A stretch of DNA of 64,000 nt from contig CAYPDP010000002.1 of assembly GCA_964409555.1 (NCBI GenBank), positions 6,975 to 70,974 on the forward strand, in the 5' to 3' direction. Source of the DNA: Candidatus Woesearchaeota archaeon. Its GTDB lineage: Archaea > Nanobdellota > Nanobdellia > Pacearchaeales > GW2011-AR1. The notes beneath the pieces are model-generated. The model was not told where the DNA came from and ran no database searches. It was given only the letters and a program-made list of their open reading frames with translations. Shown here piece by piece: positions 5,070 through 61,134 of this stretch (positions are counted from its first letter, which is position 1; each line of letters opens with the position of its first letter). The translations under genes and the position numbers were made by a program.

Positions 5070-7016
5070 ATGTGGAATTTATATAAAAAAGAGGGTGAAG
5101 AATTTCTAAAACCATTAATTTTTTCTAATGGAAAATCTCAAGAAGATATTGTTAAAGAAGTGTTAGACTCTATCAAAGATGGTTGTAAAATTATTTTTAT
5201 ACAAGGTATGTGTGGAACTGGGAAGTCTGCAATAGCTCTTAATATTGCAAAAAATCTTGGTAAAACATCCATAGTTGTTCCTGGAAAAAATCTGCAAAAC
5301 CAATATAAAAAAGATTATGAAGAAAATAAATATATTCTTAAAAAAAATGGTGAAAAATTAAAAATAAGTGTAATAACTGGAAGAAATAATCACAAATGCA
5401 AATTCTTAGAGGATAACATAAATGCTATACCTGTAATAAAAAAAGAAGTTAATTCAAGATTAAATGATATTTTTGAAAATAAAAGAGATGAAATTAGAAA
5501 TATAATAAATAATGATTTATCTGCAGATAATTTCAATATTCCCTGTAAAATAGAAATAAAAGAAAAAAATTGGAATAAAATTAAAGAATATTTAAAGCAA
5601 AATAAAAAAATTAATTATGAAAATTTTTTGGATTTAAAAGATGTAAAAAGAATTTCTGTAGCAGGTGTTTGTCCTTATTGGAGTCCAGTATTACCTGAAA
5701 AATATGATTTAAAAGTTTTTGAAGATTCAAAAAAAGAATACTATCAAGGACTTAATGGCACAAAATTTGTAATTTATAAAAGAAAATCCGGATGTAAATT
5801 TTATGAACAATTTAGTTATTTTGTAAACTCAGATGTGATTGTATTTAATTCTTTAAAATATAAACTTGAATCTGCAATTAATAGAAAACCCCTTACTGAA
5901 GTTGAAATAATTGATGAGTGTGATGATTTTTTAGATAGTTTTTCAAATCAAAAAGTGATTAATATAGATAGAATTCAAAATTCATTAAACAAGATAATTA
6001 ATAAAAATGAGTCAATGGAAAGAGTAACTAGAGAAATAAATAGTATTTTGAAAGATATAAAATCTGACATGAGAATCATGGAGGCAATTTATTCAAATGA
6101 AATAATTCCTTTAAAGGAAACTTCCATTTATGATTTACTTAAAATTTTCTTAAATTCGGAAGAATTTTTGGAAAACCTTGATGAGGAAAACTATATCTTT
6201 GATATTGAAGAGACAGCAAAAATGTTTGAGGATTTTTTTGATGACTCTTATGTTACTTTTAATAAAAAGGAGAATAATTTAACAGCAAGTATTGTAACAA
6301 CTAATCTTGAAAAAAAATTTAAAGAAATGCTTAATAAAAATAAAATTCTTGTTTTAATGTCAGGAACATTACATTCAAATGAAGTTCTTAGAGATATTTT
6401 TGGTTTAAAAGATTTTAAAATAATTGAAGCAGAGACAAGACAGCAAGGAAAAATTGAAGTTCAAAAAACAGGATTTGAAATTGATTGTAAATATCAAAAT
6501 TTTATAAATAGAGTATTTTCTAGAGAAGATTATTTGAAATCATTGAGTAAATGTGTTTCTATTGCAAAAAAACCAGCTTTAGTTCATATAAATGGATTTA
6601 ATGATTTACCTACAGAAAAAGAAAAAAGAGAATTTGGAATAGATAATTTAATTAGCAGAGAAAGACTTAGAGAAATACAAATAGAGGATAAAACAGGATT
6701 TTTAATTGAAAAATTTAAAAAAGGTCAGACAAATATTCTTTTTTCTACAAGATGTGCAAGGGGAATTGATTTTCCAGGAGAAGAATGCAATAGTATTGTA
6801 TTTACAAAATATCCTAATCCTGATGTTAAAGATGTTTTTTGGAGAATTTTAAAAAAAATAAAACCTCAATTTTATTGGAATTTTTATAAAGATAAAGCAA
6901 AAAGAGAACTTTTACAAAAAATATATCGTGGATTGAGATCCAAAGAAGATCATATTTATCTGTTGTCTCCTGATTCAAGAGTTTTGAATGTCTTTGAAAA
7001 AAATTATATTAATTGA
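5070..7016 (+). CDS. XPD/Rad3(DinG)-family SF2 helicase with a putative 4Fe-4S domain
   Basis: Walker A GMCGTGKSAIA, DExD-like IIDECDDF, SGTL motif, and C-terminal FSTRCARGIDFPGEECNSIVFTKYPNP. Four Cys lie between motifs I and II (HKC, IPC, GVCPYW, SGCKFY). Confidence 0.7.
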   Translation: MWNLYKKEGEEFLKPLIFSNGKSQEDIVKEVLDSIKDGCKIIFIQGMCGTGKSAIALNIAKNLGKTSIVVPGKNLQNQYKKDYEENKYILKKNGEKLKISVITGRNNHKCKFLEDNINAIPVIKKEVNSRLNDIFENKRDEIRNIINNDLSADNFNIPCKIEIKEKNWNKIKEYLKQNKKINYENFLDLKDVKRISVAGVCPYWSPVLPEKYDLKVFEDSKKEYYQGLNGTKFVIYKRKSGCKFYEQFSYFVNSDVIVFNSLKYKLESAINRKPLTEVEIIDECDDFLDSFSNQKVINIDRIQNSLNKIINKNESMERVTREINSILKDIKSDMRIMEAIYSNEIIPLKETSIYDLLKIFLNSEEFLENLDEENYIFDIEETAKMFEDFFDDSYVTFNKKENNLTASIVTTNLEKKFKEMLNKNKILVLMSGTLHSNEVLRDIFGLKDFKIIEAETRQQGKIEVQKTGFEIDCKYQNFINRVFSREDYLKSLSKCVSIAKKPALVHINGFNDLPTEKEKREFGIDNLISRERLREIQIEDKTGFLIEKFKKGQTNILFSTRCARGIDFPGEECNSIVFTKYPNPDVKDVFWRILKKIKPQFYWNFYKDKAKRELLQKIYRGLRSKEDHIYLLSPDSRVLNVFEKNYIN

Positions 7017-7018
7017 AA

Positions 7019-7099
7019 CGCCCCCGCCCCGAATCGAACGGGGACGCCCCGAAGGGCCCGGATCTCAAGTCCGGTGCAATACCATTATGCGACGGAGGC
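7019..7099 (-). tRNA. tRNA-Ser(UGA), class II, no intron, CCA not encoded
   Basis: Manual fold of the minus strand. Acceptor GCCTCCG/CGGGGGC plus discriminator G. D arm GCAT-AATGGTA-TTGC. Anticodon arm CCGGA-CTTGAGA-TCCGG. Variable arm of 14 nt, GCCC-TTCG-GGGC-GT. T arm CCCCG-TTCGATT-CGGGG. Total 81 nt. Confidence 0.9.
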
Positions 7100-7117
7100 T
7101 TAATTTAAATTGCATTT

Positions 7118-7207
7118 GTGCAATACCATTAACTTCAAAATATTCTTAAACTTTTGTATTTTGAATGTCCCAGAAATTTATAATTTCTGAGTGCGACGGA
7201 GGCTTAA
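7118..7207 (-). repeat. interrupted second copy of tRNA-Ser nt 1-26
   Basis: 7192..7207 equals 7088..7103 (16/16, tgcgacggaggcttaa). 7118..7131 equals 7074..7087 (14/14, gtgcaataccatta). The two halves are separated by the 60-nt insert at 7132..7191. Confidence 0.9.
7132..7191 (-). repeat. double-hairpin insert, copy S (candidate miniature mobile element)
   Basis: Minus strand: CTCAGAAATTATAAATTTCTGGGACATTCAAAATACAAAAGTTTAAGAATATTTTGAAGT. Hairpins are CAGAAATT/AATTTCTG and TTCAAAATA/TATTTTGAA. It sits exactly between tRNA positions 12 and 13 of the duplicated copy. Confidence 0.75.
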
Positions 7208-7228
7208 ATATTAAATTAAAAGAAGGGT

Positions 7229-7235
7229 TTTAAAG
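7229..7235 (-). promoter_or_regulatory. TATA-like box upstream of the interrupted tRNA-Ser copy
   Basis: Minus strand AAATCTTTAAAACCCTTC closely resembles the L3-operon promoter AAAGCTTTAAAAACCCTT. The box centre lies about 27 nt from 7205, the first nucleotides of the upstream copy. Confidence 0.5.
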
Positions 7236-7272
7236 ATTTCTATTATTAAAATAAATATTACTAAAAATTAAA

Positions 7273-7539
7273 TTAAAAGAATTTTTTCCAAAATTTCTTT
7301 TTTATTTTTATAGGATTATCGTCTTTATCATAAATTTCATATTTTATTACTGGCTTTTCTTTTAACACAGGTGCTTTTTCTGCAAGATCTTTATGAACTT
7401 GTTTAATTGCTAAATCAATAGATGCCCGAGGATAACCTTGATTTATCAAAGCCCATTTCAAAGAATCCAGAGTATATCCTTTAGATAAATTTTTCTTTAT
7501 ATATCTTGCAATATTTTCTTTATATCCTTCACTTGACAT
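7273..7539 (-). CDS. hypothetical small protein (88 aa)
   Basis: ORF only. Confidence 0.45.
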   Translation of the reverse strand: MSSEGYKENIARYIKKNLSKGYTLDSLKWALINQGYPRASIDLAIKQVHKDLAEKAPVLKEKPVIKYEIYDKDDNPIKIKKKFWKKFF

Positions 7540-15968: not shown

Positions 15969-16646
15969 ATGGAAGAAAGAAAAGTTGTCCAATTAAAGAA
16001 AGAAGAATTTACTATTAAAGAATATATTAAAAATATGCTTGGTAAAGGTAAATTAAGTAAAATAAGAATAGAATATTCTCCTGTTGGGGAAAAAATTATC
16101 ATCTCCACAAATAAACCAGGATTGATAATTGGAAGAGGTGGTGAAAAAATTAATGAACTTACAACAGTTCTTAAAGCAAAGTTCAAACTTGAAAATCCTC
16201 ATATTGATATTGATGAAATATTAGAACCAGAGTTTGATGCCCAAATAATGGCTGACGAGATTGCTTTATCTCTTGAAAGATTTGGTCCTCTAAAATTCAA
16301 AGTTGTTTCTTATAAGATTCTAAAAAGAATACTTAATGCAGGAGCTTTAGGTGTTGAAATAAGACTTAACGGGAAACTTCCAGGATCTAGGGCAAAATCT
16401 TGGAGATTTGCACAAGGATATTTAAAGAAAACAGGAGATAGTGCGAAAGTAGTTGATAGAGCTCAAGTGAGAGCCGAAACAAAACCAGGAACAGTTGGAA
16501 TAAAAGTTAGCATATTATCTCCTCATGCTATATTAAAAGATAGAATAATAATCACAGAAGAATTAATAAAAAAATTAAAAGAAAAGCCAGAAGAAATTCA
16601 AGAAAAAACAAAAATTAAAAGAAAGACAACTAAAAAAATAAAATGA
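15969..16646 (+). CDS. rps3: 30S ribosomal protein S3 (uS3)
   Basis: KH-domain segment PGLIIGRGGEKINELT and gene order. Confidence 0.95.
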   Translation: MEERKVVQLKKEEFTIKEYIKNMLGKGKLSKIRIEYSPVGEKIIISTNKPGLIIGRGGEKINELTTVLKAKFKLENPHIDIDEILEPEFDAQIMADEIALSLERFGPLKFKVVSYKILKRILNAGALGVEIRLNGKLPGSRAKSWRFAQGYLKKTGDSAKVVDRAQVRAETKPGTVGIKVSILSPHAILKDRIIITEELIKKLKEKPEEIQEKTKIKRKTTKKIK

Positions 16647-16828
16647 GTTCATTAAAATTTAAAGATTTAAAGAATATGAGTAAAGTAGAGAGAGAAAAGA
16701 AATTGAAAGAATTAAAAATAGAATTAATTAAGTCAAAAGTAAGTACTACCAAAACTGGAAGTTCAAAAATAAAAGAAATTAAAAAAATTATAGCAAGAAT
16801 ATTAATGCTAAACAAATCAAATAAATAA
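16643..16828 (+). CDS. rpl29: 50S ribosomal protein L29 (uL29)
   Basis: 61 aa. LKELKIELIKSK pattern and gene order. Confidence 0.9.
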   Translation: MSSLKFKDLKNMSKVEREKKLKELKIELIKSKVSTTKTGSSKIKEIKKIIARILMLNKSNK

Positions 16829-16829
16829 T

Positions 16830-17126
16830 ATGGAAATATGCCCAAAATGTGGATTACCTCAAGAAGCATGTGTTTGTGAACAAATTGTAAAAAGCTCACA
16901 AAAAATTCAAATAACAATGGAAAAGAAAAGATATGGAAAAATGATGACAATAGTTAAAGGATTTGAAAATGGAATTGATATAAAGAAAATAGCGAAAAGC
17001 TTGAAAAACGAATTAGCTTGCGGAGGAACTTTTAAAGATAATTCAATTGAATTGCAAGGAAATCATATTAAAAAAATAAAACCAATCCTTGTTGAATTAG
17101 GATTTGATGAAGAATCAATTAATTAA
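16830..17126 (+). CDS. sui1: translation initiation factor aSUI1 (eIF1 homolog)
   Basis: CPKCGLPQEACVC zinc knuckle plus KRYGKMMTIVKGF...LACGGTFKDNSIELQGNH. Confidence 0.9.
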   Translation: MEICPKCGLPQEACVCEQIVKSSQKIQITMEKKRYGKMMTIVKGFENGIDIKKIAKSLKNELACGGTFKDNSIELQGNHIKKIKPILVELGFDEESIN

Positions 17127-17129
17127 AAA

Positions 17130-17507
17130 ATGAAAGCAAAAACAAACAAACAAAATAAGAAAGTAGAAAAATCAGAAATAGATGAAAAAGTAGTTTCTGA
17201 AAAATATTCTTGCAAGGATAAAAAATGTCATATTCATGGAGAATTAAAAACTAGAGGAAGAATTTTTGAAGGAAGAGTAATAAAAAAATTGCATAAAAGA
17301 ATTACAATTGAATTTGAAAGAATGATTTATGTTAAAAAATATGAAAGATATTTAAAATCTAGAACAAGAATTCATGCAAGACTTCAAGTTTGTATGGAAG
17401 ATGAGATAAATGTAGGAGATTTAATAAAAATTCAAGAATGTAGGCCATTGAGTAAACAAATACATTTTGTAGTAATTAAAAAAATTAAGGATAAAAACGA
17501 AAAATGA
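17130..17507 (+). CDS. rps17: 30S ribosomal protein S17 (uS17)
   Basis: RGRIFEGRVIKKLHKRITIEFE...ECRPLSK. Confidence 0.92.
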   Translation: MKAKTNKQNKKVEKSEIDEKVVSEKYSCKDKKCHIHGELKTRGRIFEGRVIKKLHKRITIEFERMIYVKKYERYLKSRTRIHARLQVCMEDEINVGDLIKIQECRPLSKQIHFVVIKKIKDKNEK

Positions 17508-60557: not shown

Positions 60558-60644
60558 TGCGCGGGCCGGGGTTCGAACCCGGGTCATCTGGTTTCTTCAA
60601 TAAACTTTGGAAGCCAGAGATTCTAACCACTGAACTACCCACGC
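60558..60644 (-). tRNA. tRNA-Gly(UCC) with a 15-nt intron at 37/38
   Basis: Acceptor GCGTGGG/CCCGCGC plus A. D arm GTTC-AGTGGTTA-GAAT. Anticodon stem TCTGG/CCAGA with loop CTTCCA[intron AAGTTTATTGAAGAA, 60593..60607]A. T arm CCGGG-TTCGAAC-CCCGG. Confidence 0.9.
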
Positions 60645-60697: not shown

Positions 60698-60792
60698 CGC
60701 CCTTGGTAGGATTTGAACCTACGACCCCTTCCTTACCCTCAATTCTTATATTCATAGGAGGGAAGTGCTCTATCCAGCTGAGCTACAAGGGC
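60698..60792 (-). tRNA. tRNA-Arg(CCU) with a 21-nt intron at 37/38
   Basis: Acceptor GCCCTTG/CAAGGGC plus G. D arm GCTC-AGCTGGATA-GAGC. Anticodon stem CTTCC/GGAAG with loop CTCCTA[intron TGAATATAAGAATTGAGGGTA, 60734..60754]A. Intron GAGGG pairs with exon CCCTC. T arm GTAGG-TTCAAAT-CCTAC. Confidence 0.9.
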
Positions 60793-60800
60793 ATTTTTAA

Positions 60801-60902
60801 TAATGCGGGAGAAAGTCCTAAAAATTCTTTTAGAATTTTTGGAACTTCAAAACAAGTATATTTTGAAGTAATTCAAACCCTCTGCTCGTGTTCTAATCCT
60901 AA
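60801..60902 (-). repeat. interrupted, partly diverged second copy of the 3' third of tRNA-Leu
   Basis: 60801..60815 equals 60900..60914 (15/15, taatgcgggagaaag: acceptor 3' strand plus trailer). 60871..60885, attcaaaccctctgc, is a diverged copy of the T-arm attcgaaccctcgc. The two parts are separated by the 55-nt insert. Confidence 0.8.
60816..60870 (+). repeat. double-hairpin insert, copy D
   Basis: Plus strand: TCCTAAAAATTCTTTTAGAATTTTTGGAACTTCAAAACAAGTATATTTTGAAGTA. Hairpins are TAAAAATTCT/AGAATTTTTA and ACTTCAAAA/TTTTGAAGT. The terminal 12 nt ATATTTTGAAGT are identical to copy S. Confidence 0.7.
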
Positions 60903-60986
60903 TGCGGGAGAAAGGATTCGAACCCTCGCAGGCACTAAGCCAACGCGTTTTGAGCGCGTCCCGTTTGACCGCTCCGGCACTCCCGC
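60903..60986 (-). tRNA. tRNA-Leu(CAA), class II, no intron
   Basis: Acceptor GCGGGAG/CTCCCGC plus A. D arm CCG(G)-AGCGGTCAA-(A)CGG. Anticodon arm ACGCG-CTCAAAA-CGCGT. Long variable arm TGGCTTAGTGCCTGC. T arm GAGGG-TTCGAAT-CCTTT, with two G-U pairs. Confidence 0.85.
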
Positions 60987-61045
60987 ATAAGAACACCTAA
61001 CGGTTTTCTTATCAACTTTCCCTTGAATTTAATTTAAGGCTGATA

Positions 61046-61134
61046 AACACCTAACGGTTTTCCTTAGAAATTAAAAATTTCTGGGAATTAGAAAATTCTA
61101 TTTTAAGATTTTTCAAATTTATCAACTTTCCCTT
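61046..61134 (-). repeat. interrupted second copy of the 33-nt 5' flank of tRNA-Leu
   Basis: 61046..61062 equals 60992..61008 (17/17, aacacctaacggttttc). 61119..61134 equals 61009..61024 (16/16, ttatcaactttccctt). The two halves are contiguous in the proximal copy and split by 56 nt in the distal copy. Confidence 0.85.
61063..61118 (+). repeat. double-hairpin insert, copy U
   Basis: Plus strand: CTTAGAAATTAAAAATTTCTGGGAATTAGAAAATTCTATTTTAAGATTTTTCAAAT. The first 24 nt match copy S (minus strand) at 22/24. Confidence 0.75.

Follow-up and report, generated by a model that had tools for sequence, protein, structure and literature searches.

The tRNA-Ser(UGA) gene carried by the stretch of archaeal DNA studied here, 64,000 nucleotides (nt) of contig CAYPDP010000002.1 that we call the window, is preceded on its own strand by a second copy of its first 26 nt, and this copy is interrupted by a 60-nt double hairpin, named element E. 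We consider it probable that E is a mobile hairpin element lodged in the upstream one of two short units duplicated in tandem, and that the intact tRNA is cut from a precursor with a 104-nt leader. The structural part of this explanation is well supported. According to it, the start of the gene would have been duplicated in tandem with E in the upstream unit; this unit would keep the original promoter, and the downstream unit, fused to the gene body, would provide the intact tRNA.

The gene lies on the minus strand, between a convergent Rad3-like helicase gene and a conserved open reading frame (ORF) of 88 amino acids (aa; 7273..7539, minus strand). The intact tRNA (7019..7099) is 81 nt long, has a long variable arm and no intron, is detected by ARAGORN and scores 51.3 bits with the Rfam tRNA model, of which it covers positions 1-71 of 71. 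A run of seven T (6997..7003, minus strand), located 16 nt past its 3′ end and within the 3′ end of the helicase gene, is a likely archaeal terminator. On the promoter-proximal side, the first piece of the upstream copy, A1 (7192..7207, minus strand), consists of the flank TTAA and tRNA nt 1-12 (GCCTCCGTCGCA, 7203..7192), and the second, B1 (7118..7131, minus strand), reproduces nt 13-26 (TAATGGTATTGCAC). Both pieces are perfect, matching 7088-7103 at 16 of 16 positions and 7074-7087 at 14 of 14, and each sequence occurs exactly twice in the 64 kb (TTAAGCCTCCGTCGCA at 7088-7103 and 7192-7207, chance expectation 0.00; TAATGGTATTGCAC at 7074-7087 and 7118-7131, chance expectation 0.01). The 60-nt insert (7191..7132) sits exactly at the boundary between tRNA nt 12 and 13 of the upstream copy. 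Downstream of B1, an 18-nt junction of the two duplication units (7100..7117, minus strand), composed of AAATGC and AATTTAAATTAA, leads into the intact gene, and its 3′ part is similar to the native 5′ flank. The duplicated unit thus measures about 40-44 nt and is made up of tRNA nt 1-26 and some 12-18 nt of the 5′ flank. This anatomy had been described in the initial annotation of the window, and ARAGORN, Rfam and a repeat finder agree on it. The pieces are collinear and on one predicted transcript, with the intact gene behind them, which is not the layout of a split or permuted tRNA gene.

Related loci were retrieved through the helicase and the 88-aa ORF (160 loci, designated by L numbers, with 106 tRNA-Ser(UGA) genes among them). 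Assemblers can be confused by short direct repeats, and a collapsed or chimeric repeat had to be considered. The locus is, however, no assembly artefact, since two metagenome assemblies of JGI and one of Logan contain the 291-nt region with 100% identity. The same architecture is also found in other species (L105, L140 and L146/L148), L146 being identical to L148, which comes from a different sample, so that an artefact is practically out of the question.

Element E (7132..7191, minus strand) is inserted without target-site duplication and folds, in the minimum-energy and the centroid structures, into a 10-bp hairpin with one G-U pair (hairpin 1, CTCAGAAATT-ATA-AATTTCTGGG, 7169..7191) and a 9-bp hairpin (hairpin 2, TTCAAAATA / TATTTTGAA, with a 14-nt loop, 7134..7165). 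A second copy of E, 56 nt long, was detected by alignment and by nhmmer (E = 0.0017) on the plus strand at 61063..61118, inverted relative to the tRNA-Leu gene that lies downstream. The global alignment of the two copies scores 28, compared with -1.9 ± 3.7 for shuffled sequences (z = 8.2), and 23 of their first 25 positions match. The palindrome of hairpin 1, AGARAWT..AWTYTCT, occurs 11 times in the approximately 0.76 Mb searched. Copies stand at tRNA genes in the window (two), L020, L105, L140, L146/L148 and L044; the copy in L075 is helicase coding sequence, and those of L071 and L154 look like chance matches. E is, therefore, a repeated element that inserts without target-site duplication and in either orientation, the sequences flanking its two copies being GCA/TAA and TTC/TTA. 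As expected of a miniature mobile element, several similar copies exist, two of them in 64 kb and in opposite orientations, with related copies in five other loci; terminal inverted repeats are weak, the ends matching in inverted orientation at about 8 of 12 positions by eye. An Rfam search with the insert, the leader and the trailer modules of the related genes matched only tRNAs.

Short non-coding repeats built from hairpins include the miniature inverted-repeat transposable elements (MITEs), the repetitive extragenic palindromic (REP) sequences with their REPIN doublets, and the palindrome elements of the IS200/IS605 family, the latter inserting without target-site duplication. E resembles them in its length of tens of bases, its non-coding nature, its construction from hairpins and its presence more than once per genome and in both orientations; the lack of target-site duplication is shared with the IS200/IS605 relatives. 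It differs from them in that only two copies are seen in 64 kb, the terminal inverted repeats are weak, no partner transposase has been identified and most of the copies found are at tRNA genes.

The second copy of E is placed within a rearrangement analogous to that of tRNA-Ser. The 38-44 nt located upstream of the tRNA-Leu(CAA) gene (60986..60903, minus strand) are doubled in tandem, and E splits the upstream unit. The repeat scan delimits this interrupted duplication of promoter and 5′ flank at 60987..61134 (minus strand): U1a (61134..61119), E (61118..61063) and U2a (61062..61042) form the upstream unit, and a spacer (61041..61025) separates them from U1b (61024..61009) and U2b (61008..60987), the latter being followed by the gene. 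Scanning the 64 kb for the arrangement T1-insert-T2-spacer-T1T2 returned only the tRNA-Ser and tRNA-Leu cases once low-complexity matches were set aside. Hence, among the three origins put forward in the initial annotation, the one that accounts best for the locus is insertion into the gene with rescue through a partial tandem duplication. At both loci the intact unit adjoins the tRNA, regardless of the orientation of E. An insertion of E into an essential tRNA gene or its promoter would persist only where a duplicated unit leaves an intact copy beside the gene body, and E would be found in the upstream unit at tRNA-Ser and tRNA-Leu because only such insertions can persist. The constant position of the intact unit beside the tRNA is the pattern that survival of harmless insertions alone would produce.

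The position of the promoter indicates which of the two copies is the older start of the gene. Most related tRNA-Ser genes share the box (A)GAAATCTTTAAAAC, whose C is placed 32-34 nt before tRNA nt 1, and a weight matrix was built from 46 related tRNA-Ser promoters in a 24-nt form and a 15-nt core form. Over both strands of the window, the top-scoring site is the core AGAAATCTTTAAAAC (7227..7241, minus strand), composed of a transcription factor B recognition element (BRE) and a TATA box, with 24.9 bits for the 24-nt matrix and 18.6 bits for the core. From the box at 7241..7227 the +1 is predicted at 7203, where the upstream copy has its first G, while the equivalent position before the intact tRNA scores -22, which is background. 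The assignment of the only strong and well-spaced promoter to the broken copy, already proposed from inspection of the sequence, is thereby confirmed, as is its likeness to the L3-operon promoter, which is the second-best matrix site of the window. Relatives devoid of the duplication have the same box at the same spacing to tRNA nt 1, and among those with a strong promoter the predicted start falls at tRNA positions -2 to +1 in 65 of 84. With its canonical spacing to the promoter, the upstream copy occupies the usual place of the gene start and is thus the original 5′ end of the gene. A leaderless start, at tRNA nt 1, is predicted for the upstream fragment and for those 65 relatives, and not for the intact tRNA of the window, given its score of -22. 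The claim that no TATA box is properly spaced before the intact copy holds for this equivalent position but has to be qualified, since the loop of hairpin 2 of E contains a weak BRE/TATA-like box (CAAAAGTTTAAGAAT, 7142..7156, minus strand; 4.1 bits with the core matrix, within the top 0.2% of background), from which transcription is predicted to start about 19 nt before the tRNA. The equivalent box of L105 reaches 5.9 bits (top 0.09% of background; predicted start -18), and a weaker start within E, about 19 nt before the tRNA, may contribute to transcription. As a separate observation, the 40-nt stretch that comprises the tRNA-Ser promoter and its flank (7205..7244) is 80% identical to 7262..7301, 57 nt further upstream; the latter overlaps the final codons of the 88-aa ORF and may reflect either an older tandem duplication or a chance match between AT-rich sequences.

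Transcription from 7203 would proceed through E into the tRNA, generating a primary transcript of about 185 nt, and RNase P, or a 5′-processing activity equivalent to it, would cut off the leader of 104 nt endonucleolytically at 7100/7099. Counted from the predicted +1, this leader folds into three hairpins, the third of which (7124..7109) pairs the end of B1 with junction sequence, and the folding z-scores of the leaders range from -2.6 to -4.4 in four species. Because the leader holds a single T4 run, transcription may plausibly read through into the tRNA; E contains no T run of five or more. We infer that RNase P, or another route, frees the tRNA-Ser from this transcript and its leader of about 105 nt. 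A promoter precedes the upstream copy at eight of the loci that have an exact 5′ repeat, namely the window, L015, L020, L026, L039, L082 and L105 (strong) and L140 (weak box); L076 and L081 were left unscored for promoter, and L146/L148 carry promoter copies before both units. Leaders of 57-88 nt that open with diverged 5′ relics are found in L101/L110, L072 and L159, and plain leaders of 20-24 nt in L008, L021 and L056. In the window and at least eight relatives the predicted start is 57-108 nt before the intact tRNA, and 5′ processing is therefore needed. Long leaders are evidently tolerated in the group.

The relatives that carry E reproduce the arrangement of the window with differences that are informative about its history. 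In L105, L140 and L146 the tRNA-Ser layout consists of the promoter, nt 1-12, the insert, a copy of nt 13-25, a junction and the intact tRNA. Their inserts, at the same 12/13 position, are formed by a CAGARATT..AATYTCTG hairpin and a second hairpin. The junctions differ among L105, L140 and L146/L148, and the duplicated unit of L146 takes in the whole promoter, so that its intact gene has a promoter of its own. The copy of nt 13-25, perfect in the window, is decayed in the three relatives, and in L105 and L146 this second piece reads AATGTTATTGC, with loss of the conserved GG (G18). Judged by the neighbouring ORF, the E-bearing species are 59-64% identical to each other and 67-82% identical to insert-free neighbours. 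A single origin of the architecture was rejected, as the four carrier species do not form a clade by that ORF. The arrangement must have been repeatedly gained or repeatedly lost, because the four E-bearing species are not each other's nearest relatives, and loss is easy via recombination between the direct repeats. The 5′ relics present upstream in L101/L110 and L072/L159 differ from the present tRNA 5′ end, for which reason selection holding the upstream 12 nt identical to the tRNA was also rejected; since these relics have diverged, a recent origin and not a function explains why the upstream 12 nt of the window are still identical. The suggestion that the interrupted copy serves as a conserved functional decoy is not supported, given the same relics of L101 and L072 and the decay of the nt 13-26 copy in L105, L140 and L146. 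The interrupted copy would rather be a functionless, recent scar, removable by recombination between the direct repeats. A metagenome scan with the 88-aa protein for close strains lacking the insertion returned only relatives of 67% identity or less.

Archaeal splice sites are defined at exon-intron junctions by the bulge-helix-bulge motif, in which two 3-nt bulges are separated by a 4-bp helix, or by a relaxed form of this motif. The scanner used to search for it, in its strict setting, recovers the intron of a tRNA-Gly gene of the window and misses that of a tRNA-Arg gene, in which three of the four central pairs are formed. No bulge-helix-bulge was found in any of the 12 single-intron parses by which the upstream copy of the window could be spliced to the body of the tRNA, in the 10-16 sequence-equivalent parses tried in 10 loci, or in a two-intron parse. 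The junctions of E in the window, L105, L146 and L140 do not form the motif either, the central helix having at most three of four pairs and no flanking helices. Moreover, removal of the insert does not restore a full tRNA with conserved exons, as the interrupted copy stops after nt 26. E as an intron of the splicing endonuclease was accordingly rejected, no bulge-helix-bulge fitting any parse tried, and the unusual spliced pre-tRNA that had been among the proposed origins finds no support in the window or in its relatives.

A role of splicing could nevertheless be imagined if the upstream 12 nt were the true 5′ exon in a leaderless lineage without RNase P, the 104 nt, made up of E, the copy of nt 13-26, the spacer and the second copy of nt 1-12, being removed by some kind of splicing. 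The predicted start coincides exactly with nt 1 of the upstream copy, 65 of the 84 related genes have a leaderless appearance, the upstream GCCUCCG pairs with the 3′ acceptor strand in the minimum-energy fold, four Pacearchaeota lack Rpp29 in its canonical slot, and life without RNase P has a precedent in the same phylum (PMC10100707, PMC3491384). However, the absence of bulge-helix-bulge motifs in the parses of 10 loci and at the E junctions, the loss of the conserved GG from the nt 13-26 copy in L105 and L146, the divergence of the relics of L101 and L072 from the tRNA, the existence of several relatives with plain leaders and no 5′ copy at all, and the presence of RNase P in another nanoarchaeon (PMC3655853) render this proposal very unlikely. 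In a broader form, the Pacearchaeota would, like Nanoarchaeum equitans, normally be leaderless and without a conventional RNase P, and either the leaders of 57-108 nt, the 104 nt of the window among them, would be removed with neither RNase P nor a bulge-helix-bulge or the upstream 12 nt would be a 5′ exon joined by a novel route; we regard this as quite unlikely. It is also highly improbable that the gene is effectively silenced and that a second tRNA-Ser(UGA) gene elsewhere does the work. The visible part of the genome amounts to about 64 kb and no promoter is found at the usual spacing before the intact copy, but this copy is a perfect, high-scoring tRNA, the arrangement is kept in several species, and genomes of the phylum have few tRNA genes (26-54, median 35; bioRxiv 10.64898/2026.05.13.725050). 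As for the weak box in E, its presence at the same place in two diverged species (-19 in the window, -18 in L105) speaks for a tRNA driven mainly by this promoter, with a leader of some 18-19 nt, most transcripts from the strong promoter ending in E or being unproductive. That box scores, however, far below the upstream promoter (18.6 bits), L140 is without it, E holds no T run of five or more to stop the upstream transcript, and a leader would still have to be removed; its use as the main promoter is consequently unlikely.

The conceivable, though unlikely, alternative for the structure itself is a scar of site-specific integration, in which an element carrying the 5′ part of the tRNA recombined in the D-arm, leaving the resident promoter and 5′ fragment upstream in an attL-like position and a reconstituted gene downstream, with the 104 nt as a remnant of the element. 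Partial copies are frequent in the group, at the 5′ side in 12 and at the 3′ side in 14 of 106 tRNA-Ser genes, some of them in tandem cassette arrays (L076, L048), and in L020 a HEPN/nucleotidyltransferase cassette stands between the tRNA and a far 3′ repeat. The difference between the relic of L101 and L072 and the present 5′ end is expected if an incoming copy replaces the resident one, and the same layout appears in the published model for a Caldiarchaeum tRNA-Thr (PMC3293823). Against this scar, the repeat of the window includes bases of the 5′ flank and a second segment (nt 13-26), E is inside the repeat unit and not between the repeats, and the same element is found, inverted, in the duplicated and non-coding promoter region of tRNA-Leu. 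Furthermore, the 104 nt encode nothing, the neighbours are the Rad3-like helicase and the 88-aa ORF with no integrase or cargo nearby, and two trailer-module sequences of relatives gave no match in viral contigs. Hence a pure att-scar reading fits the window less well than insertion plus tandem duplication.

Several points weigh against insertion of E into a tandem duplication followed by cleavage of a long leader. Only two copies of E were seen within the 64 kb, no transposase or recombinase is known for it, and the data fit either order of events, duplication first or insertion first. The start site, the passage of transcription through E and the site of processing are deduced from the sequence. 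No component of RNase P, be it the RNA, Pop5, Rpp21, Rpp29, Rpp30 or a protein-only form, was found in the 64-kb window, where Rfam gave no RNase P RNA, and Rpp29 is not in its usual slot in the order L29-SUI1-Rpp29-S17, either in the window or in three other Pacearchaeota; ten further small ORFs of the window have no RNase P match in Pfam. In most related tRNA-Ser genes, finally, the arrangement looks made for a leaderless start, the mode of Nanoarchaeum equitans, which has no RNase P (PMC10100707, PMC3491384). The gene order L29-SUI1-S17 occupies 16643..17507 (plus strand) with no Rpp29 between SUI1 and S17, the same order is found in the three other Pacearchaeota (L165, L166 and L167), and in L166 an unassigned ORF of 116 aa follows S17. 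Literature searches found no statement on RNase P in Pacearchaeota.

Rearranged archaeal tRNA genes have been described before, and the locus is a variant of the known disruption of such genes by mobile elements and their rescue, not a new kind of pre-tRNA. In the tRNA-Thr(GGU) of Caldiarchaeum subterraneum a 5′ fragment is located upstream of the reconstituted gene (Sugahara et al. 2012, PMC3293823). Both cases show a promoter-proximal 5′ fragment as an upstream direct repeat (nt 1-27 there, nt 1-26 here), and in both mobile DNA and recombination are invoked for a disruption of the tRNA gene on a short evolutionary time scale. The repeats of Caldiarchaeum are, however, 1.8 kb apart around a recombinase-encoding element, and a spliceable intron was gained (PMC3293823), whereas those of the window are 104 nt apart with nothing encoded between them, the fragment itself is split by a 60-nt element and no bulge-helix-bulge is formed. 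Integrases that target tRNA genes, of SSV-type and pNOB8-type elements, produce att-site duplications (PMC3293823). The present group shares with these the direct repeats of a terminal tRNA segment, the 5′ repeats of the relatives ending in the D-loop and the 3′ repeats beginning in the T-loop or T-stem, and one gene cassette bounded by such a repeat (L020). The window differs from them in lacking an integrase or element body, in including flank in the repeat, in carrying the element within the unit and in the occurrence of the element also in a non-tRNA target, the tRNA-Leu promoter. Non-canonical archaeal tRNA introns, for which transposition has been reported (PMC4090602) and which are processed by splicing endonucleases of broad specificity (PMC3239211), resemble E as short structured inserts at a non-canonical position (12/13), and a hairpin related to E lies in a canonical intron of L020. 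E differs from them in that the bulge-helix-bulge is absent and the interrupted copy is only a 26-nt fragment whose second half is decayed in relatives.

The comparison with Nanoarchaeum equitans, in which leaderless tRNA transcription without RNase P was reportedly described by Randau in 2008, bears on the processing step. The group of the window belongs to the same phylum, has a fixed promoter distance that places the start at about tRNA nt 1 in most tRNA-Ser genes, and does not have Rpp29 in its usual place; it differs in that the start is 57-108 nt upstream in the window and at least eight relatives, where 5′ processing is required. N. equitans is without RNase P (PMC10100707, PMC3491384), and another nanoarchaeon has a reduced RNase P (PMC3655853). 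The contrast between a group that looks leaderless, with Rpp29 out of place, and rearranged genes that need removal of a long leader bears on whether Pacearchaeota process the 5′ end of their pre-tRNAs and by what activity. Beyond this, the locus offers a recent and sequence-perfect snapshot of an archaeal tRNA gene that was broken and rescued, the promoter and first nucleotides being left behind and a new 5′ end being placed downstream. Models of how tRNA fragments, extra introns and split tRNA genes arose invoke intermediates of this kind. In the related genomes the intermediate recurs at a measurable frequency (12 of 106 genes at the 5′ side, 14 of 106 at the 3′ side), and a defined element of 56-60 nt occurs at two tRNA genes of one genome.

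An exact upstream copy of nt 1-12 to 1-16 accompanies about 11% of the 106 tRNA-Ser genes, and a downstream copy of the last 9-18 nt accompanies 13%; because of these partial 5′ and 3′ duplicates, tRNA-Ser(UGA) is a rearrangement hot spot in the group. The pattern is reminiscent of the borders that integrated elements leave, and of the tRNA-Thr of Caldiarchaeum (PMC3293823). The modules that stand between the repeats are of several unrelated types. Trailers that open with an inverted copy of the T-loop (GAATCGAAC) are found in 7 of 13 cases, which is significant compared with shuffled sequences. In L046, L059, L048, L015, L140 and L164 this inverted copy is 9-11 nt long (GAATCGAAC(C)) and the trailer ends in a direct copy of the tRNA 3′ end; in L048 the trailer unit is repeated in tandem. 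A comparable signal in the leaders, antisense to the tRNA 5′ end and suspected by eye in L015 and L081, was discarded, as the summed longest inverted match was 61 and shuffled sequences gave a mean of 56 and a maximum of 65. At least 10 loci (including L007:5416-5560, L113, L089, L106, L011, L023, L041 and L015) have directly 3′ of tRNA-Ser(UGA) a conserved module of about 145 nt that is 80-90% identical between distant species. It starts with a hairpin whose arms vary between species with the pairing kept, terminates in a copy of the 3′ strand of the acceptor, and has no Rfam match. A viral or plasmid origin of the modules was looked for, and two conserved trailer-module sequences had no match in viral contigs.

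Two arrangements of L020 deserve separate mention. In one (L020:4650-6180), a pair of nucleotidyltransferase and HEPN genes (DUF86-like, motifs recognised by eye) is flanked by tRNA-Ser(UGA) on one side and by a distant copy of the final 11 nt of this tRNA on the other, which looks like a toxin-antitoxin-like cassette inserted at the 3′ end of the tRNA. In the other (L020:5949-6290), the 150-nt intron in the anticodon loop of tRNA-Ser shares a 59-nt stretch of 88% identity with the 5′ leader of the same gene, and this canonical intron also carries an E-like double hairpin. In L020, sequence has moved between the leader and the intron of one gene.

The surroundings of the tRNA-Leu gene contain further repeats and tRNA genes. 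The last 11 nt of tRNA-Leu (TTTCTCCCGCA, 60903..60913, minus strand) recur at 60804..60814, about 88 nt downstream, and two AT-rich hairpins lie between these 3′ repeats, the second overlapping the likely promoter of the next tRNA. Two intron-containing tRNAs, at 60698..60792 and 60558..60644 (minus strand), are found by Rfam and missed by ARAGORN; their anticodons, read by eye, are CCU and UCC. These are the tRNA-Arg and tRNA-Gly used above to judge the scanner; the tRNA-Gly intron has a strict bulge-helix-bulge and the tRNA-Arg intron has three of the four central pairs, and a TATA-like box precedes each of the two genes by about 32-33 nt.

As a whole, the window has a G+C content of about 25% and encodes the archaeal ribosomal proteins L1, L10 and P1 and the cluster from L3 to L15. 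The best homologues of its Rad3-like helicase (5070..7016, plus strand), with 73% identity or less, are from Candidatus Pacearchaeota (DPANN, Nanoarchaeota/Nanobdellota), and one helicase homologue of 854 aa (P0049) contains intein and homing-endonuclease domains (PF14528, PF14890).

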